A DNA stretch of 56,224 nucleotides, taken from assembly GCA_049454855.1 (NCBI GenBank), contig JBMUAQ010000002.1, positions 1 through 56,224 of the forward strand, written 5' to 3'. Under the pieces are notes generated by a model. It saw nothing but the letters and a program-made list of their open reading frames with translations. It was not told the DNA's origin and made no database searches. This DNA is from Ilumatobacteraceae bacterium. GTDB lineage: Bacteria; Actinomycetota; Acidimicrobiia; Acidimicrobiales; Ilumatobacteraceae. The translations under genes and the position numbers were made by a program. This document shows, one piece after another, positions 2,777 through 56,224 of the stretch; position 1 is the stretch's first letter, and each line of letters begins with the position of its first letter.

Positions 2777-3902
2777 GACACTCGTAGACCAGATGAAGCA
2801 GGGCCTCGACGCCCCCATCTGTCTCACCTGGGAACTCACGTACGCGTGCAACCTCGAGTGCATCCACTGCCTGAGCAGCAGCGGGCGGCGTGACCCGCGC
2901 GAGCTCACCACGGAGCAGTGCGTCGCCGTGATCGACGAGCTGCGCCGGCTGCAGGTGTTCTACGTGAACATCGGGGGCGGCGAGCCGATGATCCGCCGCG
3001 ATTTCTTCGACATCGTGAACCATGCCGTCAACGGCGGCGTGGGCGTGAAGTTCTCCACGAACGGGGCGTTCATCGACCGGAAGGCCGCACGCCGCCTCGC
3101 CTCGATGGACTACCTCGACATCCAGGTCAGTCTCGACGGAACCGACGCGGCGACGAACGACGCCGTGCGCGGCGCCGGCTCGTTCGACACCGCGATGACC
3201 GCGATGCGCAACCTCAGCGACGCCGGCTTCGGCCCGTTCAAGATCTCGGTGGTCGTCACCCGGCACAACGTCGACCAGCTCGACGGCTTCAAGGCCCTCG
3301 CGGATTCCTTCGGCGCACAGCTGCGCGTCACGCGCCTGCGCCCCGCCGGCCGCGGTGCGGATTCGTGGCACCAACTGCACCCCACCAACGCGCAGCAGCG
3401 GCAGATCTACAACTGGCTGCTCGCGCACGGCGAGAACGTGCTCACCGGTGACTCCTTCTTCCACCTGAACGCACTCGGTGACCCGCTGCCCGGGCTGAAC
3501 ATGTGCGGTGCCGGTCGCGTGGTGTGCCTGATTGACCCCGTCGGCGACGTGTACGCGTGCCCGTTCGTGATCCACGAGGAGTTCAGGGCGGGCAACGTGC
3601 TGGCTCCCGGTGGGTTCACCTCGGTGTGGCGGGAGAGCGAACTCTTCCGTTCGCTGCGCGAACCGCAGAGTGCCGGGGCGTGCGCCTCGTGCGGCGCGTA
3701 CGATGCATGCCAGGGCGGCTGCATGGCGGCGAAGTTCTTCACCGGCCTGCCGCTAGACGGCCCCGACCCGGAGTGCGTGGGCGGCGACGGCGAGACACTG
3801 CTTGCGTCGGTGCCCGTTGCCCTGGCGCCGCGCCCTAGCCCCGACCACTCGAAGCCGCAGCGTGCGGCACGGCCCGGCATCCTCGTCGGGGGCGGCAACT
3901 GA
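2766..3902 (+). CDS. mftC: Mycofactocin radical SAM maturase MftC (radical SAM/SPASM)
   Basis: CxxxCxxC motif in WELTYACNLECIHC, then GGGEP. Cys-rich SPASM C-terminus (CGAGRVVCLIDPVGDVYACPF, CASCGAYDACQGGC). Confidence 0.95.
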   Translation: MSSETLVDQMKQGLDAPICLTWELTYACNLECIHCLSSSGRRDPRELTTEQCVAVIDELRRLQVFYVNIGGGEPMIRRDFFDIVNHAVNGGVGVKFSTNGAFIDRKAARRLASMDYLDIQVSLDGTDAATNDAVRGAGSFDTAMTAMRNLSDAGFGPFKISVVVTRHNVDQLDGFKALADSFGAQLRVTRLRPAGRGADSWHQLHPTNAQQRQIYNWLLAHGENVLTGDSFFHLNALGDPLPGLNMCGAGRVVCLIDPVGDVYACPFVIHEEFRAGNVLAPGGFTSVWRESELFRSLREPQSAGACASCGAYDACQGGCMAAKFFTGLPLDGPDPECVGGDGETLLASVPVALAPRPSPDHSKPQRAARPGILVGGGN

Positions 3903-3903
3903 C

Positions 3904-4494
3904 ATGGACATCCTCGTCACCGTCGCTGTCGTCGTTGTCTCCTACTTCCTCGGCACCATCCCGAGCGCGATCGTGGTCGCACGGTCGAAGGGAGTCGACA
4001 TCACCACCTTCGGCAGCGGCAACCCCGGTGCCAGCAACGTGGGACGGGCCCTCGGCGCGAAGTGGGGCATCCTCGTGTTCGTCATCGATGCCGCGAAGGG
4101 TGCGGTGCCCACCGCCCTGATGCTGGGTGACCGCAAGGTTGCATACATGTGCGGCGCGGCCGCGATCGTGGGCCACATCTTCCCCGTCACGCGGCGCCTG
4201 AAGGGCGGCAAGGGCATCGCCACGGGTGGCGGTGTGGTGCTCGCGCTCTTCCCCGCGGTGCTGGCCGCTGCGCTCGCCACCTGGCTGGTGCTGATGAAGA
4301 CCACGAAGAAGGCATCGGTCGGCTCGATCATCGCGGTTCCCGTGGTGGTGGCCGGTCTGTTCGTCGTGGGCCCGCCCGCCTGGGAGATATGGAGCATGGT
4401 CGGCCTCGCCCTGCTCGTGGAGGTGCGCCACCTCGGCAACATCAAGCGCCTCTTTGCCGGGTCGGAACCACCGGTGACGGGAACCCGGTCGTAA
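3904..4494 (+). CDS. plsY: Glycerol-3-phosphate acyltransferase PlsY
   Basis: ORF 3802..4494 trimmed to ATG 3904 (MDILVTVAVVVVSYFLGTIPSA). Motifs GSGNPGASNVGR, GHIFP, GGKGIATGGG. Starts 1 nt after the mftC stop. Confidence 0.9.
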   Translation: MDILVTVAVVVVSYFLGTIPSAIVVARSKGVDITTFGSGNPGASNVGRALGAKWGILVFVIDAAKGAVPTALMLGDRKVAYMCGAAAIVGHIFPVTRRLKGGKGIATGGGVVLALFPAVLAAALATWLVLMKTTKKASVGSIIAVPVVVAGLFVVGPPAWEIWSMVGLALLVEVRHLGNIKRLFAGSEPPVTGTRS

Positions 4495-4504
4495 TCTCGG
4501 GACC

Positions 4505-5128
4505 GTGCTGCCGGTCATCGACTCCTTCTTCGACTGGCTGAAGGACTACTCCGGCTCGCCGTGGTTCTACGTGGTCATCTTCGCGGTTGCGGTGCTCGAC
4601 AGCGTCGTGCCGATCGTGCCGAGCGAGACCATGGTGATCATCGGCGGTGTCAGCGCCGGCCTGCACGACCTCTTCTGGCCGTTCGTGGTGGCGGTTGCGG
4701 CAGGCGGTGCCTTCACCGGTGACCTGCTCAGCTACACCATCGGCAGGAAGGCGTCGAACTGGTTCGAGCGCAGGTACAACAGCACGGAGAAGGGGGCACG
4801 GCGCCTGCAGTGGGCGCGTGACCAGGTGGAGAAGCGCGGCGGCGAGCTGCTGATCACGGCACGCTTCATCCCGGGAGGGCGCACCCTGCTCACCCTCACG
4901 TGCGGCATCACCGGACAGCCGCGACGGTGGTTCATGCGCTGGATCGGTGTTGCCGCCACGGTGTGGGGCACGTACGCCACGATGCTCGGGTTCATCGGCG
5001 GCCGCACGTTCCAGGACAGCCACACGAAGGCATTCCTCGTCGCGTTCGCCACCGCAATCGGTGTCACTGCGTTCAACGAGCTCGTGCGGTTCGTGTGGAA
5101 GCGCACCCGTCGCCGCAGCGCGGCATGA
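4505..5128 (+). CDS. DedA/VTT-family integral membrane protein
   Basis: GTG start. Motifs FAVAVLDSVVPIVPSETMVIIGG and ARFIPGGRTLLTLTCG, typical of DedA. Its stop overlaps the mftE ATG (ATGA). Confidence 0.85.
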   Translation: MLPVIDSFFDWLKDYSGSPWFYVVIFAVAVLDSVVPIVPSETMVIIGGVSAGLHDLFWPFVVAVAAGGAFTGDLLSYTIGRKASNWFERRYNSTEKGARRLQWARDQVEKRGGELLITARFIPGGRTLLTLTCGITGQPRRWFMRWIGVAATVWGTYATMLGFIGGRTFQDSHTKAFLVAFATAIGVTAFNELVRFVWKRTRRRSAA

Positions 5129-5784
5129 GCGCCGACCGCAGGTCGCGGCTTCTCGTGGTGCCGGTCGGTTCGTTCGAACAGCACGGCGCGCACCTGCCCC
5201 CCTCCACTGATTCGCTCATCATCACCGCGGTTGCCGGGGCGGCGTGCACAGGCCACGGGGCCACCCTGGGGCCCACGGTGAACGTGACCGCGAGCGACGA
5301 GCATGCGGGCTTCGCCGGCACCCTCAGCATCGGCACCGACCTCACGGCCGCCACCCTGGTTTCGATTGCGACATCGGCAACGGGGTGGACGGACGGGGTG
5401 TTGTTCGCGAACGGCCACGGCGGCAACGCCGATGCGCTCGCAATGGCAACCGAGGAACTGTCGCTTCGGGGCGTGCCGCACGACGTGTGGTCGCTTCCCG
5501 CATACGACGGTGCCGACATGCATGCGGGTCTCACCGAGACCAGCGTGATGCTGCACCTCCACCCGGACCTCGTGCGCATGGACCTTGCGCGGCCAGGCAA
5601 CACCGGCGGTGCCGCCGACCTCATGCCGGCGATGCGTGCAGGAGGTGTGCGCGCCGTTTCGACGAGCGGGGTGCTCGGTGACCCCACCGGTGCAACCGCC
5701 GCGCACGGCCGAGCCGTGTTCACGATGTGGGTCGGTTCGCTGTCGAACCGCATCGACGGGCAGACGGCAGGGCGGCAGGGGTGA
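5125..5784 (+). CDS. mftE: Mycofactocin peptidase MftE (creatininase family)
   Basis: ORF 4900..5784 trimmed to ATG 5125. Sequence MSADRRSRLLVVPVGSFEQHGAHLPPSTD..ANGHGGN..HAGLTETS. Confidence 0.85.
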   Translation: MSADRRSRLLVVPVGSFEQHGAHLPPSTDSLIITAVAGAACTGHGATLGPTVNVTASDEHAGFAGTLSIGTDLTAATLVSIATSATGWTDGVLFANGHGGNADALAMATEELSLRGVPHDVWSLPAYDGADMHAGLTETSVMLHLHPDLVRMDLARPGNTGGAADLMPAMRAGGVRAVSTSGVLGDPTGATAAHGRAVFTMWVGSLSNRIDGQTAGRQG

Positions 5785-7151
5785 ACCACGACGGCAGCAC
5801 CGTGCTGCATGCCGACCGGCGGTGGTGGCGCTCGCGTGACCGGCACGGTGTGCTCGCCGGGAGCCCGGGAACGTTCATTCGTGTGTCGGAGAACGGCGTC
5901 CCGTTGCTCGACTCCGTGGAGGCCGCCCGTCCGGTCGGGCGCTCGGTGCTGACCTCCCGGCTCGTGGCAACCGGGGCCGCCCACCCCGAGCCTGGCGCAC
6001 CCGCAGCGGCCACCGACGTGACTGTGGTGGTGCCGGTGTTCGCAGACGGAACCGACACCGTGCAGCGTGTACAGCAGGTTGTGGACTCGCTCGCGCCACT
6101 CGCCGTGATCGTGGTGGACGACTGCTCGCCCGTCAACGTCGATGTGCGCCGCGCCACCGTGGTGCGACGCGACGCGAACGGGGGCCCGGGCGCGGCACGC
6201 AACAGCGGCCTCGCGTCCGTGGGCACACCGGTGGTCGCGTTCGTCGACAGTGACGTGCAGGCCACCGCAGCCGACATCCTCCGGCTCACCGGGCACCTCG
6301 CCGATGCACAGGTGTCGCTCGTGGCACCGAGGGTGACCTCGCGTGACGGACGCCGCGCGGTGGAGCAGTACGACGCACTCTGCAGCCCGCTCGACATGGG
6401 CCCGCACCCCGCATCGGTGCGGCCGCGTTCGCATGTTCCCTACGTGCCCACTGCGGTTCTCGTGGCCCGCACCGACATCGCGCGGGAGGGCTTCGACGAG
6501 GGCCTGCGCAGTGGTGAGGACGTGGAGTTCGTGTGGCGCTCGGTGGCCGCGGGCAACGTCTGCATCTATGACCCCGCGGTCACCTGCACCCACGAGCCGC
6601 GCCGCGGCATCGCCGCGATGGTTGCCCAGCGCTTCAGTTACGGCCGCAGTGCCGCGGGCATCGACTCGCGCATGCCGTGGTCTGTTGCACCGGTGCAGGC
6701 GCACGTGTTCCACGTTTCGCCGCTTGCGCTCCTTCTCGCAGGCCAGATGCCGTGGGCAGTCGCAGCCCTCGCGGTGTCGGTGGCGTGGACATTCGTGGCG
6801 CTGCGCGGCATGGGGCTCACGGCCCGCAACAGGCTGGAGGTGGCGCGGCTGTCGGTGTCGTCGGCATCAGGTTCGCTGGCGCGTGCGGTGTGCAGGGAGT
6901 GGTGGCCGGCGTTCGCCGTCGCCTCCGCCTTCGGGCCCTCGTTCACGGTTGCGCTGTTCGTGCCGCTGTCGGCGCTGATGCTCATCGACATCAGGCGTTC
7001 GCGTCCGTCGAACCAGGCGCTCTTCCTTGGAATGCGGATCCTCGACTGGGCTGCCTACGGCGCGGGGGTGTGGGTGGGTGCGGTCGCTCGGCGCTCGCCG
7101 CGCTGTCTGCTTCCGCGTCTCAGCGTGAGGCGGTCTGCACGCGCCGCGTGA
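5781..7151 (+). CDS. mftF: Mycofactocin glycosyltransferase MftF (GT2 domain plus C-terminal TM segments)
   Basis: GTG 5781 overlaps the mftE TGA (GTGA). Motifs VVVPVFADG, VVDDCSP, GGPGAARNSG, FVDSD, GEDVEF. Hydrophobic C-terminal third. Confidence 0.85.
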   Translation: MNHDGSTVLHADRRWWRSRDRHGVLAGSPGTFIRVSENGVPLLDSVEAARPVGRSVLTSRLVATGAAHPEPGAPAAATDVTVVVPVFADGTDTVQRVQQVVDSLAPLAVIVVDDCSPVNVDVRRATVVRRDANGGPGAARNSGLASVGTPVVAFVDSDVQATAADILRLTGHLADAQVSLVAPRVTSRDGRRAVEQYDALCSPLDMGPHPASVRPRSHVPYVPTAVLVARTDIAREGFDEGLRSGEDVEFVWRSVAAGNVCIYDPAVTCTHEPRRGIAAMVAQRFSYGRSAAGIDSRMPWSVAPVQAHVFHVSPLALLLAGQMPWAVAALAVSVAWTFVALRGMGLTARNRLEVARLSVSSASGSLARAVCREWWPAFAVASAFGPSFTVALFVPLSALMLIDIRRSRPSNQALFLGMRILDWAAYGAGVWVGAVARRSPRCLLPRLSVRRSARAA

Positions 7152-26163: not shown

Positions 26164-26240
<77 letters not shown>

Positions 26241-26302
26241 TCGTTGTAGTCGGAGAACTACGGTACTGGCACGGCCGCAGGGCCGCAACCCGAACGAACG
26301 TC

Positions 26303-26749
26303 ATGGCTCTCTTCTCGCGCAGGAAACAACCCGACCCGGTGCTCAACGCGGTGCAGGACCTCATGGCCTTCTCCGAGGAGGCACTGCGGGTCAGCCGCGA
26401 GGAGACCCGCGTGGCCAACGAGCGTCTTGCGTCACTGGAGGATCTGGTGACACGCCTCGGTGCCGCACTCGAGGACGAGAAGAAGGCCAACCGCGAGGGT
26501 GCCGAGCGTCTGTCGGTGATCGAGGCCAGGTTGATGAGCCTGGGCAGCGAGCTGGCGAACCAGATCCACGAGATGGGCAACGAGATCGAGAAGCTCGCTG
26601 CGCGCGAGGGTGACGGCTCGTTCGCAGAAGTGGCCGAAACGCTGCGCACCACCCAGGTGCGGCTCGCGCAGGAGCAGGCCCGCTACGAGATCGCCTTCCG
26701 CCAGGACCTCGCGGCGCTGGCCGACCAGTTGCAGCGCCGGGGACGCTAG
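26303..26749 (+). CDS. Coiled-coil protein of unknown function
   Basis: Trimmed to ATG 26303, because the upstream part of the track ORF overlaps the tRNA. Heptad-rich sequence of 148 aa (MALFSRRKQPDP..LEDLVTRLGAALEDEKKANREGAERL..). Confidence 0.6.
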   Translation: MALFSRRKQPDPVLNAVQDLMAFSEEALRVSREETRVANERLASLEDLVTRLGAALEDEKKANREGAERLSVIEARLMSLGSELANQIHEMGNEIEKLAAREGDGSFAEVAETLRTTQVRLAQEQARYEIAFRQDLAALADQLQRRGR

Positions 26750-43612: not shown

Positions 43613-45922
43613 CTAGTTGGCGTCGACGGCGTGGAGGATCGCGCGCTCGATCTCGGTGCGGTACGGAGCGTCGACGATCTTGCCGCCGTCGACGTCGCAC
43701 ACGTAGAACGAGTCCACCACCTCGTTGCCGAGTGTCAGCACGCGGGCGTGGCGGATGTCGAGGCCGAGGTCGGCCATGGCCTTCGTGACCCGGTGGAGGA
43801 GGCCGAACCTGTCGGGTGCGCGCACCTCGAGGAACGTGGCGTTCGAGGATGCACTGTCGTCGAAGCGCACCGACGGTGCCGACGGCACATCGGCCGACAC
43901 AGCGCGGCGCGGTCTCACGGTGGCAGCACGCTCGGAGAGGCGCGAGCCGAGTGCGAGGCGGCCGCCGAGCGCACGCTCGAGGTTCGCCACCACCGGCTCC
44001 CACTCGATGGCGCCGCTGTAGCCGGGCACCACCCGGAACTGCGACGCCGCCATGCCCTGCTCGTCGGAGTGTGCCTCAGCCCCCAGCACGTCGAGGCCGT
44101 GCAGTGCCATCACCCCGGCAACCTTGCTGAAGGTTCCCGGTGCATCCGGGCTCACCACGGTGACACGGTCGGGCTCGGTGCGGATCGACACGGTTCCTCC
44201 CGCCATCATCTCAAGCACGTTCGCGTCGGGGAACAGGCGCCACACGACCTCCTGCACGTCCCCGCCACCCAGCACGTGACGCACGCGTTCCACCAGCGTC
44301 GACAGCAGCTCGGCCTTCCAGTCACTCCACGCCGACGGCCCGGTGGCAAGTGAGTCCGCCTCGGTGAGTGCGTGCAGAAGGTCGAGCACCGTCTGGGTGC
44401 CGACATTGCCGGCGACCATCGTGATGGTGGCATCGTCGCTGAGGTCGCGCCGAGTCGCAGTGTCGGCGAGCAGGAGATGGTGCTCGATCATCAACGACAC
44501 GATCTCCTGGTCGGCCTCGGTGAGACCCATGCGGGCGCCGAGCGTGCGCCACAGCTCCACACCCACCTCGGTGTGGTCGCCCGGGTAGCCCTTGCCGATG
44601 TCGTGCATCAGTGCACCGATCATCAGTAGGTCGGGCCGCGACACCCGCTCGACGAGACGTGCGGCGTTCGCGGCGGTCTGCCACAGGTGCCGGTCGACGG
44701 TGTAGCGGTGATAGGCGTTTCTTTGCGGCCGGCTGCGCACCGGTGCCCACTCCGGCAGCACCTTCACGATGAGGTTGCGCTGGTCGAGTGCCTCCAGCAC
44801 GGTGATGGCGGCCTCCCCCTCGAGCAGCAGTGCCACGAGATCGTCCGAGGCGCCGGCAGGCCATGGGTCGGGCCACACGGGTGCCGACGAGCCGAGCCGG
44901 TCGAGTGACGAGCGGTCGATGCGGGCGCGGTGCCGCGCCGCGGCAGTGGCCACGCGCAACAGGAGCGTGGGGTCAGAGACGTCCACGTCGTCGGCAAGAT
45001 GGATCTCACCGTTCACCAACTGCACACCGGGTGCGAGGTCGACGGGTACAGGCGAGCGACCGGCGGGCGGGTCGAGGCGCGCCCACGCCTCGTCGGCAAT
45101 CCATGCGACGCTCCGGCCGACACCGGCGATGGCGGCCATGAGGTCGTTGTCGCTCGCGTGACCGCACGCGGCCGCTACCGCTGCCTGGTCCTCGAGGCGG
45201 AGCGTCTCCACGGCACGACCCGACTGCCGGTGGAGAGCAACACGCACGGCGAGCAGCACGTCGTTGCACCGCTCGAGCTCGGCGGTGTCGGCCGCGCCGA
45301 GCGCGAGGCCCGCACGCACGGCCCACCCGAGGGTGTGGATGTCACGCAGACCGCCGAGACCCTCCTTCAGGTTCGGCTCCAGCATGAACGCAACCTCGCC
45401 GTGCTCCGCATGGCGCTCGCGCACCCGTTGGTGCAGCTCCACCAACCATTGCCCGCCGCGACGTGACCAGGATGCGGCCGCGTCCGCCACCACTGCGGCC
45501 GCGAGTGACTCGTTGCCCGCGAGGTGCCGTGCCGTCACGAGCGCGGTGGCGGTGTCGAGGTCGGTGGCGCACATCTGTGCGGTCTCCCTCGGGGTGCGCA
45601 CCGAGTGACCCAGCTTCAGTCCGGCATCCCACGCCGGGTACCAGATGCGCGAGGCGATGTCGGCGATGTTGCGCACACCGTCGTGCACCAGCAGGAGGTC
45701 GAGGTCGCTGTGCGGGGCGAGTTCCTCCCTGCCGTAGCCACCGACAGCCAGCAGCGCGATGCGGTCGGCCTTCTTCTCGCCCTCCACCGCGGCGGCGAAC
45801 ACGTCGCGCAGCCATGTGTCGGTGACGGCCGACAGGGCACGGCATGCCTCGATGCCCCTCAGTGAGAAATCGGAAATCACCTCCGCGCGTGCGGAGAGCG
45901 AGCGTGCAGGAGCGTCAGTCAC
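43613..45922 (-). CDS. glnD: [Protein-PII] uridylyl/adenylyl-transferase GlnD
   Basis: Trimmed to GTG (complement of 45920-45922). Nucleotidyltransferase motif AVGGYGREELAPHSDLDLLLVH, HD domain ALMHDIGKGYPGDH, and two C-terminal ACT-like segments. Confidence 0.85.
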   Translation of the reverse strand: MTDAPARSLSARAEVISDFSLRGIEACRALSAVTDTWLRDVFAAAVEGEKKADRIALLAVGGYGREELAPHSDLDLLLVHDGVRNIADIASRIWYPAWDAGLKLGHSVRTPRETAQMCATDLDTATALVTARHLAGNESLAAAVVADAAASWSRRGGQWLVELHQRVRERHAEHGEVAFMLEPNLKEGLGGLRDIHTLGWAVRAGLALGAADTAELERCNDVLLAVRVALHRQSGRAVETLRLEDQAAVAAACGHASDNDLMAAIAGVGRSVAWIADEAWARLDPPAGRSPVPVDLAPGVQLVNGEIHLADDVDVSDPTLLLRVATAAARHRARIDRSSLDRLGSSAPVWPDPWPAGASDDLVALLLEGEAAITVLEALDQRNLIVKVLPEWAPVRSRPQRNAYHRYTVDRHLWQTAANAARLVERVSRPDLLMIGALMHDIGKGYPGDHTEVGVELWRTLGARMGLTEADQEIVSLMIEHHLLLADTATRRDLSDDATITMVAGNVGTQTVLDLLHALTEADSLATGPSAWSDWKAELLSTLVERVRHVLGGGDVQEVVWRLFPDANVLEMMAGGTVSIRTEPDRVTVVSPDAPGTFSKVAGVMALHGLDVLGAEAHSDEQGMAASQFRVVPGYSGAIEWEPVVANLERALGGRLALGSRLSERAATVRPRRAVSADVPSAPSVRFDDSASSNATFLEVRAPDRFGLLHRVTKAMADLGLDIRHARVLTLGNEVVDSFYVCDVDGGKIVDAPYRTEIERAILHAVDAN

Positions 45923-46382
45923 GGGCGGCCTCCGCCCGGCGGCGTGTGATGACGGTCGCGGCCTTCCAGGCGCCCCACTCGATGCCGGCCCCGTGCACGT
46001 CCTGACCGAGATCGATCCAGGCGAGAGGTCCGAGGGCGTAGGTGTCATCGGGCATCGCGCGGGTGTCGAACTCGTCGCGAACCGGCGCAGCGACACCGAG
46101 CGCGGCGAGTTCCGCGTTCGCGAACCGCGAGGCGCTGCGGATCACGTGCAGCGGGTTCGAACGCTGCTCGTCGGGGTCGGTGGCGAGCAGCGTCGCGAGC
46201 GCGCCCGGCAGCCACGCCGACGCCGCTGCGACGGCTCTTTCCGTGGCCTCGTCGGCGCCGCGGGCACCACCGGCAATCTCCTTCATGCGTGCCCGCAGCC
46301 ACGCCGGGTGTGCGCGCACCACCGCGTCGAGCAGTGCCCGTGCGCGGGGGTCGAGTTCGGTGGACGGTGCCTGTGGGTCCAT
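45915..46382 (-). CDS. Hypothetical protein (155 aa) translationally coupled to glnD
   Basis: Trimmed to ATG (complement of 46380-46382). Its stop lies inside the glnD start region (GTGACTGA, 8-nt overlap). No motif I recognise. Confidence 0.55.
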   Translation of the reverse strand: MDPQAPSTELDPRARALLDAVVRAHPAWLRARMKEIAGGARGADEATERAVAAASAWLPGALATLLATDPDEQRSNPLHVIRSASRFANAELAALGVAAPVRDEFDTRAMPDDTYALGPLAWIDLGQDVHGAGIEWGAWKAATVITRRRAEAARD

Positions 46383-49983: not shown

Positions 49984-50615
49984 GACGGGTTCGGACGGGC
50001 GGTGGTCATCGACAGCACCCCGAGCCCGATGAACAGGAACCCCGACACCCAGCGACGCATCACGTGCACTGCCCTCCCCCGCACCAGGCGGTCACGCAGG
50101 CGCGCCGCGAGCAGCACGTAGGAGGAATTGAACAGTGAGGCGAGCAGCACGAACACCGCCGCCAGCACCAGCGACTGCGTGGTTGCGCTGTCGGACGCGG
50201 GGTCGACGAACTGCGGGAAGACGGACAGGAAGAACAGGGCTGTCTTGGGGTTGAGCACGTTCACGAACACCCCCTGGCGGAACACGAGGGACCGGTCCAC
50301 GTGCGAGGTGTCCTCGGCAAGGGCGGGCGGCACCGTGAGCAGAGTGCGCACGCCCGTCCACACGAGATAGACGACCCCCACCCACTTGATCGACTCGAAC
50401 AGCGCCTGCGAGGTGGCGATCACGGCGCTCAGGCCCAGCGAAGCCAGCGTTGCCTGCAGGGCGTCACCCACCTCCAGGCCGGCCACGGCGGTGAGCCCGG
50501 CGGTGCGACCGTCGGCGAGGGTGCGGTTCAGCATGAAGATCACGGCCGGTCCGGGGATCAAAAGGAGCACCACGGTGGCCCCGATGAAGGCCAGGAGACT
50601 CGCTGTATCGGGCAC
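49980..50615 (-). CDS. LysE-family amino-acid exporter
   Basis: Trimmed to GTG (complement of 50613-50615). Motifs LLAFIGATVVLLLIPGPAV and NPKTALFFLSVFPQF. Its stop overlaps the next gene's ATG (ATGA). Confidence 0.8.
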   Translation of the reverse strand: MPDTASLLAFIGATVVLLLIPGPAVIFMLNRTLADGRTAGLTAVAGLEVGDALQATLASLGLSAVIATSQALFESIKWVGVVYLVWTGVRTLLTVPPALAEDTSHVDRSLVFRQGVFVNVLNPKTALFFLSVFPQFVDPASDSATTQSLVLAAVFVLLASLFNSSYVLLAARLRDRLVRGRAVHVMRRWVSGFLFIGLGVLSMTTARPNPS

Positions 50616-50691
50616 GGAATCGACTGTATCCGCACCCGTCCGCAACGGTCCCGCAACGAAACGGCCGCCTCCTGCGGTGCCCCCGGGAGGA

Positions 50692-50729
50692 TTAACGCTC
50701 CGTGTGCGCCCGTGTAACACACGCGAAAC
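50692..50729 (+). promoter_or_regulatory. Putative GlnR double box upstream of amt
   Basis: TTAAC-n6-TGTGC-n6-GTAAC-n6-GAAAC with exact 5-6-5-6-5-6-5 spacing. The distal pair GTAAC(50714-50718)-n6-GAAAC(50725-50729) matches the actinobacterial gTnAc-n6-GaAAc consensus. It ends 60 nt upstream of the amt ATG. Confidence 0.45.
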
Positions 50730-50789
50730 ACGGGCTTCCTAACTTGCCGGGCAGTCCCACCCGACCACCAACTTCCAGGGGAAACCAAC

Positions 50790-52353
<1,564 letters not shown>

Positions 52354-52384
52354 TTCGACGGGCCGCAGCAACGGGGCCCAGGGC

Positions 52385-53152
52385 TCAGTTGGCCAGTGAC
52401 CCGCCGTAGATCTGCCACGCCAGCAGGCTCTTCGCCACCAGGCTGAGCACCAGGTACGTCTTCTCGCCGTGCACGTAGTCGGCCCATCGGCCGGCACCGC
52501 GGTACTGCAGCCACTGGTTCAGGCCGAACGAGAAGAAGAGCACCTGCTCCACCACCACGATGAAGAACACGAACGTGGGGACCGTCTCGGCGCCCACCAC
52601 GTTCACCCAGATGCCGATCCACGGCAGGGCACCGGCGACCGTGCCGAACCAGAACGGCTTCATGTTCGTCGTGGTGCGGCCGGGCGGGTTCCCCGACTCC
52701 TGCAGCCACCCGAACAGGATCATGCCCACGTTCGCGCCGATCAAAGCGAGCACCGCGGTGATGTCGGTGATGCCCGAGTACGCCGCGATGAGAATCAGCA
52801 TCAGGGTGGCACTGAACGAGTACTCCACCCAGCGGAACCTGTTGATGCCGGCGCGCAGGCCTGTCTCGTAGCGGTCGCGCCACACGGTGGCGGTGAGCCC
52901 GTGGTCGAGCGCTGCGAGAAGGAGGAACAGCGCCACTGCCGGGCCGACCGGGAGGTCGAGGAACTCTGCCGGCGTGCCGAGCCGCGTGCCGGGAGGGCCC
53001 TCGGGGAAGTTGGAGGTGATGGTGATCGCGAAGTCACCCGCCATCACGGCAATGAGCACGGCCTGCGCGAGGTGCAGTGCCGCCAGCACGATGTTCCATG
53101 TGCGCAGGTTCGAGAGCCGCGCCGGGGGGATGTCGATGGTGCCCGTAGTCAT
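52385..53152 (-). CDS. Heliorhodopsin (7-TM retinal protein)
   Basis: 255 aa. Blocks shared with characterised heliorhodopsins: NRFRWVEYSFSATLM (Glu110, codon 52823-52825), MILFGWLQE, KPFWFGTVAGALPWIG, GEKTYLVLSLVAKSLLAWQIYGGSL (Lys241, AAG at 52430-52432). His27 and His84 are also present. Confidence 0.9.
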   Translation of the reverse strand: MTTGTIDIPPARLSNLRTWNIVLAALHLAQAVLIAVMAGDFAITITSNFPEGPPGTRLGTPAEFLDLPVGPAVALFLLLAALDHGLTATVWRDRYETGLRAGINRFRWVEYSFSATLMLILIAAYSGITDITAVLALIGANVGMILFGWLQESGNPPGRTTTNMKPFWFGTVAGALPWIGIWVNVVGAETVPTFVFFIVVVEQVLFFSFGLNQWLQYRGAGRWADYVHGEKTYLVLSLVAKSLLAWQIYGGSLAN

Positions 53153-53161
53153 GGACCCAAA

Positions 53162-53767
53162 CTAGGCCCGGGCCACTGATGCACGCTGTGATTCGCGGCG
53201 GGCAGAGAGCTCCAGCCACGCCACGATGACGTTCGTCAGCAGGGCCAGCGTGGTGGTGCCGATCAGCGTGGGGCTGGCGAGCAGCACCGAGTACACCTCC
53301 CAGCTGAGCAGGCAGCCCATGCCGAGCGCGATGGAACCAGGCGACACGGCGGACGTCGAGAGCCCGCTGCGGCGCGACCGCCACGAGCGGATGATCTGCG
53401 GCGCGCGCGACAGGGTGAACGCGAACAGAGCCGGGTTCACCAGCCACAGCGGCCCCGCGGCACCTGCGGCAACAACCACGAGGAACACGCCCGCGATGCG
53501 CGGCACCACGCGACGGGCATCCTCGGTGATGGCGAGCACCACCCGCGCGTTGATCACACCGGTGGCCACGGTGCTGACGACGAGCGACGGCGAGCCGGTG
53601 CGGATGCCGTAGCCGAGCCAGGCAGCGCTGGAGCTGGTCATCAGCATCCACATCGCGAGGCTCACTCCGTGCGAATGGCCGAGCGACTTCACCCGTCTCG
53701 CCTGCGGGAGACCCTGCATCACCCCGAGAACCGCCGCGATGAACCCGAAGATCTCCGCGGCGAGCAC
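53162..53767 (-). CDS. 7-TM double PQ-loop (SWEET/MtN3-like) membrane protein
   Basis: GTG start. Two PQ motifs, each after a first helix: VMQGLPQARRV and LSRAPQIIRSW. My hydropathy reading gives a 3+1+3 TM arrangement. Ends 9 nt before the heliorhodopsin ATG. Confidence 0.7.
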   Translation of the reverse strand: MLAAEIFGFIAAVLGVMQGLPQARRVKSLGHSHGVSLAMWMLMTSSSAAWLGYGIRTGSPSLVVSTVATGVINARVVLAITEDARRVVPRIAGVFLVVVAAGAAGPLWLVNPALFAFTLSRAPQIIRSWRSRRSGLSTSAVSPGSIALGMGCLLSWEVYSVLLASPTLIGTTTLALLTNVIVAWLELSARRESQRASVARA

Positions 53768-53776
53768 GGAACGAAC

Positions 53777-54499
53777 CTAGTCGGCGATCTCCACGCGCAC
53801 GCGCTTGTTGCCCTTGCCCTTGGACTCCAGCTTGGTGACACGCAGCGAACCCACCTCGCGCGTGGAGCGCACATGGGTGCCGCCGTCGGCCTGCCTGTCG
53901 AGACCGACGATGTCGACCACGCGGATCTCGCTCACGCTCTCGGGGATGAGCGACACCTTCGTGCGGATGAGGTCCTCGTCGGTCACCGCGGTGCCCCGCG
54001 GCAGGAACGACACCTCTATCGGGTGGTCGGCCGCGATTGCCTCGGACACCAGCTGTTCCACGCGCGCCGCGAAACCCTCGGGCAGGGGGTCGAACTCGAA
54101 GTCCATGCGCGCCGACAGCGGTTCCATGTTCCCGCCCGTGACGGGCACCTTCCACTCGTTCCAGATCACCCCGCACAGAACGTGCATCGCGGTGTGCGTG
54201 CGCATCAGGCGGTGGCGACGGTCCCAGTCGATCCCGCACCGCACCGTCGCACCCGGAGCGGGTGCTGCCGAGCCGTCGGCCAGCCAGTGCACAACCTCGT
54301 CGCCGTTCTTTCGCACATCGACGACCCCTGCATCCCCGATGGTGCCGGTGTCATGGGGCTGGCCGCCGCCCGTGTAATAGAACACGGTGCGGTCGAGCAC
54401 CACCCCGGCGCGGCCGTTGTCGTCGGTGCGCACGTCGAGCACCACCGCGTCACACTCGCGCAGGTATGCGTCGCGCAGGAAGAGAAGGTCGGTGGCCAC
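53777..54499 (-). CDS. alaX: AlaX-type alanyl-tRNA editing domain protein
   Basis: GTG start. Contains YYTGGGQPHDTG, the Zn motif HTAMH, and ADGGTHV, as in AlaRS second additional domain proteins. Confidence 0.8.
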   Translation of the reverse strand: MATDLLFLRDAYLRECDAVVLDVRTDDNGRAGVVLDRTVFYYTGGGQPHDTGTIGDAGVVDVRKNGDEVVHWLADGSAAPAPGATVRCGIDWDRRHRLMRTHTAMHVLCGVIWNEWKVPVTGGNMEPLSARMDFEFDPLPEGFAARVEQLVSEAIAADHPIEVSFLPRGTAVTDEDLIRTKVSLIPESVSEIRVVDIVGLDRQADGGTHVRSTREVGSLRVTKLESKGKGNKRVRVEIAD

Positions 54500-54510
54500 G
54501 CAAGCCGCCG

Positions 54511-55185
54511 TCAGACCTGGTTCACCAGCTCGGCGACCGGGGTGACCATGCCCACGTAGAAGCTGCCGAACTCGGCGTACTCGGCCGATGCCTCGTCGAA
54601 GCGCATCGTGTACACCACTTCCTTCAGGTCATCAGGGTGCACCGCGAACAGCGTCACCCCCCACTCGAAGTCGTCGAGCCCGGCGGAGCCGGTGACCAGT
54701 TGCACCACGCGGCCGGCGAAGGTGCGGCCACTCCTGCCGTGCTCCTCCATGAGTTCCTTGCGACGCTCGAACTCGAGGGTGAACCAGTTCTGCCCCGGGT
54801 TGCGGCGCTTGCTCATGGGGTAGAAGCACCACGCATTCTTTCCGGCCGGCGGCAGCTGCGGGTACAGGCGCGCCTGGATCATGGCCTCGGGCACGCCCTG
54901 CGCGTACTCCGACACCTCGGTGAGCGACACGTACGAATCCACGATGTCGAGGCCGGCGTGCTGCACCACGGTCTGCAGCGCCTTCAGGTCGCGCATGTCG
55001 GACGACAGCGCCATCACCGCGACGTCGGCCTTGTGCCCCAGCATCGACACCGTGACCACGGTGACGCCCGCGTTCTCCGCCGACTTCACGCCGTTCACCA
55101 GCGCCTCACCGTCGAAGCGGGGGGTGGTCCTGCAGAACAGGTGCAGCACCGCCATGCCGACCGAGGGGGACATCGATTCGCTCAT
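54511..55185 (-). CDS. chdC: Chlorite-dismutase-family coproheme decarboxylase (ChdC/HemQ)
   Basis: The ATG (complement of 55183-55185) overlaps the upstream stop (ATGA). Motifs CFYPMSKRR, NWFTLEFERRKELMEEHG, FEWGVTLF, FYVG. Confidence 0.8.
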   Translation of the reverse strand: MSESMSPSVGMAVLHLFCRTTPRFDGEALVNGVKSAENAGVTVVTVSMLGHKADVAVMALSSDMRDLKALQTVVQHAGLDIVDSYVSLTEVSEYAQGVPEAMIQARLYPQLPPAGKNAWCFYPMSKRRNPGQNWFTLEFERRKELMEEHGRSGRTFAGRVVQLVTGSAGLDDFEWGVTLFAVHPDDLKEVVYTMRFDEASAEYAEFGSFYVGMVTPVAELVNQV

Positions 55186-56078
55186 GACGACCAACCTACC
55201 GACCGCGCGGCAAGCACCGCCGAGGCGAACCGCTCGGCCGCGCCCGCATCGGTGTGGAGGAACAGGGACGGCTCGGTGAGCTCCAGTTCCATCAGCACGG
55301 GGGTTCCGGCCGACCCGCGCACCACGTCGACACGCGCATACAGAGGGGCCCTGCCGAACCTCCGCGTGACGAACGACATCACCTCGTCAGCCAGCTCCAT
55401 CTCCTGGTCGTTCGCACGCCGGGACGATATGTCCTCCTCGGCATACAGGCCCTCGGCCCATCGGTTGTTGCCGTCGGAGAGAATCGCGGCCTTGCGGAAC
55501 GCGTGGCTGAACGTGCCGCCGAAGTAGAGGAGGCCGGTCTCGCCGTTGTCATCGATGAACCTCTGGTACGGCTGCACCATCACCTTCTTCCCTGCATCGA
55601 GCAACGAGGTGATGTGCGCCGCTGCACCAGACGGGTTCGCCGTGTGTCGTGCGGTGTCGTTCGAGCCGGCGCTGACCGTTGGCTTCACCACCACGTCACC
55701 CTTGATCAGGTCGTTCGCCAGCACGAGATCCTCTGCGCCGCGCACGAAAGTGGTGGGGATCACGGGGATGCCGGCCTCGGCGAGCTCGCCGAGATACGTC
55801 TTGTCGGTGTTCCAGCGCAGCACCTCCGCGCTGTTCAGCAGCGGAACCAGCGTCGACACACGGTCGATCCACGCGAGGAACTCGGGCATGCGCCGGTGGT
55901 AGTCCCACGGCGAGCGCACGATGGCCGCATCGAAGCGAGACCAGTCGACCGATGCATCGTCCCAGTCGACGATCTCGGCGGTGACACCACGGTCACCGAG
56001 TGCACGCACGGCGAGCGGCAGGTCGGTGTCGAGGTGCCGCGCCTCCGCCACGCTCACGAGCGCAACGGGACGCGGCAT
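55182..56078 (-). CDS. ATP-grasp domain protein (RimK/glutathione-synthetase-like fold)
   Basis: 298 aa. Contains WNTDKTYL, VVKPTVSAGS, VMVQPY and LMELELTEPSLF, an ATP-grasp-like pattern. Confidence 0.7.
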   Translation of the reverse strand: MPRPVALVSVAEARHLDTDLPLAVRALGDRGVTAEIVDWDDASVDWSRFDAAIVRSPWDYHRRMPEFLAWIDRVSTLVPLLNSAEVLRWNTDKTYLGELAEAGIPVIPTTFVRGAEDLVLANDLIKGDVVVKPTVSAGSNDTARHTANPSGAAAHITSLLDAGKKVMVQPYQRFIDDNGETGLLYFGGTFSHAFRKAAILSDGNNRWAEGLYAEEDISSRRANDQEMELADEVMSFVTRRFGRAPLYARVDVVRGSAGTPVLMELELTEPSLFLHTDAGAAERFASAVLAARSVGWSS

Positions 56079-56116
56079 CCCTCGTACCTGACCTGTGACG
56101 ACCCTGCGGTGGGTGA

Positions 56117-56224
56117 CTAGAAGTCGCCCATCCCGCCGTGGTCGTGACCGCCGGCAGCGGCCTCCTCCGGCTTGTCGGCGATGACGGCCTCGGTGGTGAG
56201 GAACAGCGCGGCGATCGACGCGGC
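56117..56224 (-). CDS. groEL: Chaperonin GroEL, C-terminal 35 codons only (5' part lies outside the window)
   Basis: My minus-strand translation reads [35 protein letters not shown]. This is the conserved GroEL C-terminal helix plus a GGM-type tail. Confidence 0.85.

Follow-up and report, generated by a model that had tools for sequence, protein, structure and literature searches.

The question raised by this locus is whether a rhodopsin-like gene lying beside ammonium-transport genes encodes a genuine heliorhodopsin (HeR) and, if so, whether its product would sense light, transport ions or serve its genetic neighbours. The gene is located at 52385..53152 on the minus strand of a 56,224-nt stretch of DNA from an Ilumatobacteraceae bacterium (contig JBMUAQ010000002.1), the whole of which is called the window here, and it encodes 255 amino acids followed by a stop codon. 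Its sequence, its predicted structure and its analogy with characterised proteins point to a functional HeR of the 48C12 type in a freshwater, high-GC, Ilumatobacteraceae-like member of the Acidimicrobiia. The protein would carry retinal on Lys241 with Glu110 as the counterion, and would modulate a partner protein without pumping ions; we give this reading a probability of roughly 60%. The most likely role of the protein is that of a light sensor or regulator.

Identity and fold of the heliorhodopsin

The open reading frame (ORF) starts with ATG, and an in-frame stop codon is found three codons upstream. The protein matched the Pfam family Heliorhodopsin (PF18761) over the complete profile (positions 1-242 of 242; E=5.4e-93, 311 bits vs a cut-off of 26.7), and the Pfam scan of the protein matched no family besides this one. 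The NCBIfam HeR equivalog NF038020 was matched with 262.5 bits vs a cut-off of 100. The best sequence matches in the PDB were 48C12 (E=2e-65), then TaHeR (E=2e-51) and then the eukaryotic Cv06 (9VFC). An earlier interpretation made from the DNA letters alone, the sequence-only reading, had called the gene a HeR, and the full-length matches to both family models together with a template-modelling score (TM-score) of 0.87 to 48C12 agree with it. Re-reading of the sequence also reproduced the 255-aa ORF, the codon positions and the four motif blocks on which that reading was built (FRWVEYSFSATLM at residue 106, ILFGWLQE at 145, PFWFGTVAGALPWIG at 166 and VLSLVAKSLLAWQI at 235).

The residues around the putative chromophore are those of the family. 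Lys241 (AAG, 52430..52432, minus strand, as are all codons given here) would be the retinal Schiff-base lysine in helix G and is invariant in 82 of 82 relatives, while Glu110 (GAG, 52823..52825) is the predicted Schiff-base counterion, equivalent to Glu107 of 48C12. His27 (CAC, 53072..53074) and His84 (CAC, 52901..52903) correspond to His23 and His80 of 48C12. All four residues align exactly on 48C12 in the positions that had been proposed for them. Ser237, the equivalent of Ser237 in 48C12, replaces Asp212 of type-1 rhodopsins, and Glu110 is the sole helix C counterion in the alignment. Kovalev et al. 2020 (PMC7049168) listed the conserved functional residues of the family. Of the 17 that are polar and conserved, the window protein keeps 16; only Ser76 differs, with Ala80 in its place. 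The residues of the Schiff-base cavity (His27, His84, Asn104, Tyr111, Asn20, Glu230, Arg107 and Tyr95) are present.

An AlphaFold2 model built from 28 homologues (mean pLDDT 82) has seven helices, and Lys241 is positioned inside the last one (226-249), the transmembrane helix in which the sequence-only reading had expected it. The loop between helices A and B forms a beta-hairpin with strands 43-47 and 62-67. Foldseek gave TM-scores of 0.82-0.88 to the HeR structures 6su3, 6su4, 6is6 and 6uh3 (0.87 for 6su3), whereas type-1 rhodopsins reached at most 0.69, with fold matches at E ~1e-3 and a TM-score of ~0.6. The possibility of a type-1 microbial rhodopsin was ruled out by the Pfam result, by these TM-scores and by the replacement of Asp212 with Ser237. 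Apart from Lys241, 12 of the 13 Lys and Arg residues are on the predicted cytoplasmic side (N-terminal, BC, DE and FG segments); Arg57 is the only Lys or Arg of the extracellular loops, which hold six Asp or Glu residues. In the model, this distribution fits a topology with the N-terminus inside, which the sequence-only reading had also anticipated, and the positive-inside pattern described for 48C12. The alignments and the model show that the predicted retinal pocket is intact, and they also reveal the counterion, the polar cavity on the cytoplasmic side and the topology. Judged by its sequence and its modelled fold, the ORF is a genuine, intact HeR.

The comparison with 48C12 and with the Thermoplasmatales structure, proposed beforehand as a check, gave strong matches to both. 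48C12, which comes from a freshwater actinobacterial fosmid (6SU3, 6SU4, 6UH3), is ~45% identical to the window protein over the full length and shares with it the retinal lysine, the counterion Glu, both His residues, the cytoplasmic cavity, the Glu149 region, the AB-loop hairpin and the positive-inside pattern. The two proteins differ by the changes of Leu202 to Glu202, Ser76 to Ala80, Ser112 to Ala115, Asn207 to Phe207, Tyr179 to Asn184 and Pro40 to Thr44 (48C12 residue first), and these six changes are fixed or nearly so in the Acidimicrobiia clade. Glu202 (GAG, 52547..52549), in transmembrane helix 6 (TM6), was overlooked by the sequence-only reading, and it is the one residue that separates this protein from the characterised bacterial HeRs. 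It is reported that a Ser-Asn bond between TM3 and TM4 speeds the photocycle of 48C12. This bond is lost here because Ser112 is replaced by Ala115, and by analogy a slow photocycle like that of TaHeR may be expected. TaHeR, from a Thermoplasmatales archaeon (6IS6), is ~38% identical (TM-score 0.84-0.85) and likewise has Ala at the TM3 'SNap' position, but it has Ile199 in place of Glu202 and Met in place of Gln213. The change of Asn207 to Phe207 alters a residue lining the lateral fenestration. The viral subfamily 2 is without the analogues of Pro172 and Asn138, whereas the window protein keeps them as Pro177 and Asn141; it belongs to the bacterial 48C12-like group.

A probable light-dependent regulator and the nitrogen genes beside it

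The characterised bacterial HeRs regulate, in a light-dependent way, glutamine synthetase, photolyase or an ABC transporter. OcHeR, a regulator of an ABC transporter, and TfHeR, a photolyase helper, are bacterial HeRs believed to work through contact with a protein encoded next to them. The homology with 48C12, TaHeR and AbHeR suggests that all-trans retinal bound to Lys241 would isomerise to 13-cis retinal upon illumination, and the Schiff-base proton would move to the water-filled cytoplasmic cavity formed by His27, His84, Asn104, Tyr111, Arg107 and Glu230. A long-lived late intermediate would be the signalling state and would reshape the cytoplasmic loops with the conserved Arg218 and Arg222, and the altered loops would modulate a partner protein instead of pumping ions. 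The retinal would be supplied by genes elsewhere in the genome or by the environment.

This reading is favoured by the profile matches, the fold and the charge pattern described above, and by two further features. The gate Trp of the ion-transporting HeRs is Phe206 in the window protein, and Arg218 and Arg222 partly conserve the positive charges in the third intracellular loop (ICL3) of AbHeR. Several points weigh against it. Glu202 would put a carboxylate in the extracellular half, which is hydrophobic in the non-transporting reference structures. The changes to Ala80, Ala115 and Phe207 could alter the pKa of the counterion, the kinetics of the photocycle or the lateral fenestration. There is no retinal pathway in the 56-kb window: Pfam annotation of ~47 ORFs revealed no phytoene synthase or desaturase, lycopene cyclase, Blh/Brp or RPE65-type oxygenase, as the sequence-only reading had noted from the letters. 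Finally, the neighbourhood singles out no partner, and none can be named from the context because this neighbourhood is kept only among close relatives.

The neighbourhood consists of nitrogen genes on one side and a row of minus-strand genes on the other. The glnK (P-II) gene (52015..52353, plus strand) is convergent with the HeR gene, the two stop codons being 31 nt apart, and the ammonium transporter gene amtB (50790..51983, plus strand) is upstream of glnK. The P-II uridylyltransferase gene glnD is found at 43613-46141 on the minus strand (746 bits vs a cut-off of 631). In Actinobacteria, the amtB-glnK-glnD operon is usually contiguous. The glnD gene of the window is ~4.6 kb from amtB on the opposite strand, separated from it by genes for a patatin, an acyl-CoA dehydrogenase, an alpha/beta-hydrolase and LysE. 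On the other side, five minus-strand genes are arranged head to tail in the order ATP-grasp, chlorite-dismutase (Cld)-like, AlaXM, PQ-loop and HeR, separated by gaps of 9-11 nt or joined by a 13-nt overlap.

For the conservation of this arrangement, the neighbouring proteins of the window were compared by tblastn with 80 related loci from GTDB species genomes (labelled L001 onwards), and all flanking ORFs were clustered. The Cld-like/AlaXM/HeR block was found in 11 of the 80 loci (L001-L006, L012, L013, L018, L046 and L066). These share one part of the HeR tree, where they are interleaved with a few non-syntenic loci (neighbour-joining, unbootstrapped), and within this clade the stretch that separates AlaXM from an acyl-CoA dehydrogenase gene varies. 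The remaining ~69 loci have many different neighbourhoods. The only other recurrent context, comprising the photolyase-related DPRP, a short-chain dehydrogenase/reductase (SDR), NAD-binding/DUF2867 and HeR, was seen in eight loci (L014, L020, L023, L027, L030, L031, L034 and L045). In these, an NAD_binding_10+DUF2867 gene is directly upstream of the HeR gene on the same strand, and in several of them it is preceded by SDR and DPRP genes on the other strand. This context overlaps the published photolyase and SDR neighbour groups. Such Acidimicrobiia HeRs adjoin a photolyase-related gene and an SDR, whereas none of the ten published neighbour groups is directly beside the window HeR; the nearest alpha/beta hydrolase gene is ~2.3 kb away, beyond glnK, amtB and LysE. 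The context of the window is new with respect to the ten published groups, yet it is weakly conserved. Common descent, together with a site prone to rearrangement, accounts for it better than a functional module would, and it says little on function because the block occurs in 11 of 80 loci and amtB-glnK in three. The sequence-only reading held that each new genomic context is informative, which is overstated for a context conserved only among the closest relatives.

The adjacent nitrogen genes suggest that the HeR might be a light switch for nitrogen assimilation that modulates AmtB/GlnK, or a glutamine synthetase whose gene is elsewhere, and thereby couples the uptake of ammonium to light. 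The amtB-glnK pair directly downstream of the window HeR is arranged in the same way in L001 and L002 and lies on the other side of HeR in L066. A precedent exists in AbHeR of the acI actinobacterium IMCC26103, which binds glutamine synthetase through the positive charges of its ICL3 and activates it, and the acI HeR genes share their transcripts with those of glutamine synthetase and NAD synthetase. AbHeR resembles the window protein in its freshwater actinobacterial origin, its 48C12-like residues, its ICL3 charges, two of three of which are matched here and retained as Arg218 and Arg222, and in having a nitrogen-metabolism gene nearby. However, the AbHeR gene shares an operon with glnA and the NAD synthetase gene, and the Pfam annotation found no glutamine synthetase, NAD synthetase or type-1 rhodopsin domain in the 56 kb. 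AbHeR also has Ile200 at the position of Glu202 and is therefore of a different sub-type. The pair is within 8 kb of HeR in only the three loci named above, all of one clade, and the close relatives L012, L018, L046 and L003-L006 are without it, so a conserved amtB-glnK/HeR module was rejected. Since amtB-glnK and HeR are convergent, they are not co-transcribed. The literature search for HeR with AmtB or P-II returned nothing relevant. On this evidence, we consider a nitrogen switch unlikely.

A bidirectional terminator shared by glnK and HeR was also considered and dropped, as the 31-nt spacer folded into a hairpin no better than shuffled sequences (z = -0.41 and +1.15).

Glu202 and the question of proton transport

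A role in ion transport is raised by Glu202 itself, which is located four residues before the retinal-flanking Phe206. By ungapped alignment, Glu202 falls on Ile199 of TaHeR, and a buried orientation of its side chain may be inferred from the published description of that residue. Hososhima et al. 2022 (PMC9448325) noted that Glu191 of the viral V2HeR3 is homologous to TaHeR Ile199 and to Thr178 of bacteriorhodopsin. Glu191 is the hallmark of the proton-transporting viral HeRs, and the E191Q mutation abolishes the current of V2HeR3 (PMC9448325). Kovalev et al. (PMC7049168) described a Glu in place of Leu202 in just two groups, namely subfamily 2, which is mostly viral, and a eukaryotic one, and reported that the extracellular interior of 48C12 is without a polar residue. 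The extracellular half is wholly hydrophobic in both non-transporting reference structures (PMC9448325, PMC7049168). In the window protein, Glu202 and Gln203 replace Leu202 and Phe203 of 48C12 in this half, which is not all-hydrophobic as it is in the 48C12 type.

Of the 82 Acidimicrobiia sequences, 59 have Glu at position 202, 22 have Gln and one has Ile. Among 88 full-length representatives of the family, Leu (25), Ile (17) and Tyr (14) are the most frequent. Gln and Met occur eight times each, and Glu is limited to four representatives, which are those nearest the window protein. In Cv06, this position is a Tyr proposed to blue-shift the absorption.

These observations raise the possibility that bacterial HeRs with Glu202 transport protons in a light-driven or light-gated manner, as V2HeR3 does, in which case a large and otherwise 48C12-like Acidimicrobiia clade would carry a protonatable Glu at the viral gate-glutamate position that opens a proton path. 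The window protein resembles V2HeR3 and the related coccolithovirus HeRs in the TM6 Glu, a prerequisite for proton transport by HeRs, and in Gln216 and Glu230, which match E/Q205 and E215. The residue is rare in the family and confined to this clade. In addition, the locus L069 holds two tandem HeR paralogues (3704-4555 and 5404-6156, plus strand; 49% identical, 850 bp apart) with a photolyase-related gene nearby; one is of the Glu202 type and the other of the Ile202 type, which hints at distinct roles. However, Glu191 is necessary and not sufficient, as Trp195 and E/Q205 are needed too, and EhHeR and McHeR carry the Glu and show no transport (PMC9448325). The Trp195 gate partner, which flanks the retinal in V2HeR3, is absent: the residue is Phe206 in the window protein and in 82 of 82 relatives. 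The 22 relatives with Gln have by nature the substitution that kills the V2HeR3 current. Read directly from the sequence and the model, the extracellular half is hydrophobic apart from residues 202 and 203, and all other features are 48C12-like. Both proton transport by these proteins and a clade-wide proton path opened by Glu202 therefore appear quite improbable.

The natural exchange of Glu and Gln at position 202 argues that a neutral hydrogen-bonding side chain is enough there, which suits a tuning of the spectrum or the kinetics better than a proton relay. Trp182 in helix E is present in 50 of the 59 Glu202-type sequences, while the Gln-type sequences mostly have Ala or Leu, in a count uncontrolled for relatedness. 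This co-occurrence may indicate a hydrogen-bond partner for Glu202, or shared ancestry alone.

Upstream genes, relatives and meaning for the family

The gene directly upstream of HeR encodes a PQ-loop/SemiSWEET-like membrane protein of 201 aa (53162..53767, minus strand), the stop codon of which is 9 nt from the HeR ATG. PQ motifs occur at residues 21-22 and again at residues 122-123, and an internal repeat is weakly recognisable (E=0.012); on these grounds the protein is of the two-repeat, SWEET-like bacterial type and not a SemiSWEET with three transmembrane helices. As OcHeR does for an ABC transporter, the HeR might regulate this presumably co-transcribed transporter in the membrane. The 9-nt gap favours this, and no promoter or terminator match was found between any of the five minus-strand genes. 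Over 50500-56224, the promoter scan gave no match, and the terminator scan gave two, both within coding sequence and in a number equal to the chance expectation. In L013 the PQ-loop gene still adjoins HeR, although it is downstream; it is upstream in L001, L002, L012, L018 and L046. It is nevertheless limited to seven loci of one clade: the gene is absent from L003-L006, its homologue is frameshifted in L066 (3425-3896) where HeR is intact, and a phmmer search of the six frames of the 80 loci found homologues in the syntenic clade only. A general HeR/PQ-loop linkage was rejected on this distribution, and regulation of the PQ-loop protein is very doubtful. AmtB/GlnK, glutamine synthetase and the PQ-loop protein are suggested as partner candidates by proximity alone.

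Equally doubtful is a role as a 'two-antenna' light harvester, with a xanthophyll from outside bound at the lateral fenestration, as a 2025 preprint proposed for most HeRs: the preprint motif is kept (aromatic residues 162/206 as Phe167/Phe206, small residues 166/210 as Thr171/Gly210, and Gly169 as Gly174), but in place of the Asn207 said there to position the carotenoid, this protein has Phe207, as do 81 of 82 relatives, and the hypothesis rests on docking and is silent on downstream function.

The other three genes of the row, all on the minus strand, encode proteins with scores below the curated cut-offs. The AlaXM-like alanyl-tRNA editing protein (53777..54499; 245.8 bits vs 300) is encoded 9 nt upstream of the PQ-loop gene. 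The ChdC/HemQ-like protein of the chlorite-dismutase family (54511..55194) scored 221.8 vs 253 for HemQ/ChdC and 51 vs 235 for the actinobacterial HemQ. The DcsG-like ATP-grasp gene (55182..56078; 284 vs 360) overlaps the start of the Cld-like gene by 13 nt.

Elsewhere in the window, the Rfam scan of its whole length found a tRNA-Met (CAT) at 26164-26240 on the minus strand as the sole RNA. It overlaps the 5' end of a listed ORF at 26186-26746 that has no Pfam match, and for this reason the ORF is probably not a gene as drawn. The region of 35.7-37.1 kb was considered as non-coding and this was rejected, since it holds ordinary genes with a lower GC content at third codon positions (GC3), namely, as judged by eye, a Tag-like glycosylase and a HEAT-repeat-like ORF.

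The HeR gene itself looks native because its GC content (0.66-0.68 vs a window mean of 0.683), its GC3 (0.92) and its codon composition match the surrounding genome, and a recent horizontal transfer was rejected on the match in GC and GC3. At E<=1e-20, a word-indexed search found 5,689 proteins, of which 12, from Actinomycetota and Acidimicrobiales metagenome-assembled genomes (MAGs), are 92-96% identical; the NCBI pipeline names a 94%-identical protein 'heliorhodopsin HeR'. A library of representatives at 50% identity contains 2,845 clusters of the HeR family. An identical protein with the same neighbours was found on a 3.1-kb Logan contig of run SRR30952023. The 80 related loci come nearly all from Acidimicrobiia/Ilumatobacteraceae MAGs of lakes and rivers. 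Five of them (L003, L045, L052, L059 and L060) are in MAG records titled 'Bifidobacterium' and have Acidimicrobiia-type HeR loci, some of them syntenic with the window; the taxonomic labels of these deposited records are probably wrong. Acidimicrobiia HeRs are already in the literature, for example from Actinomarinales. The rarity implied by the sequence-only reading was overstated, as this HeR is one of thousands from the environment and an additional member of a well-known, very populous family that is abundant in freshwater Actinomycetota.

What the locus adds is a context at the level of one clade: HeR is accompanied by ATP-grasp, Cld-like and AlaXM genes and, in some loci, by a PQ-loop gene, and the insertion of amtB-glnK is variable. 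The contexts of Acidimicrobiia HeRs are highly variable, which fits a promiscuous sensor and not a fixed module. If Glu202 did open a proton path, these proteins would be the first prokaryotic ion-transporting HeRs. They are abundant in freshwater plankton, and in some genomes, such as that of L069, they coexist with a paralogue of the classical Ile202 sensor type. The Glu202/Gln202 signature marks a testable set of bacterial proteins, in which the gate glutamate may be sufficient outside the viral subfamily or may tune only the colour and the kinetics.

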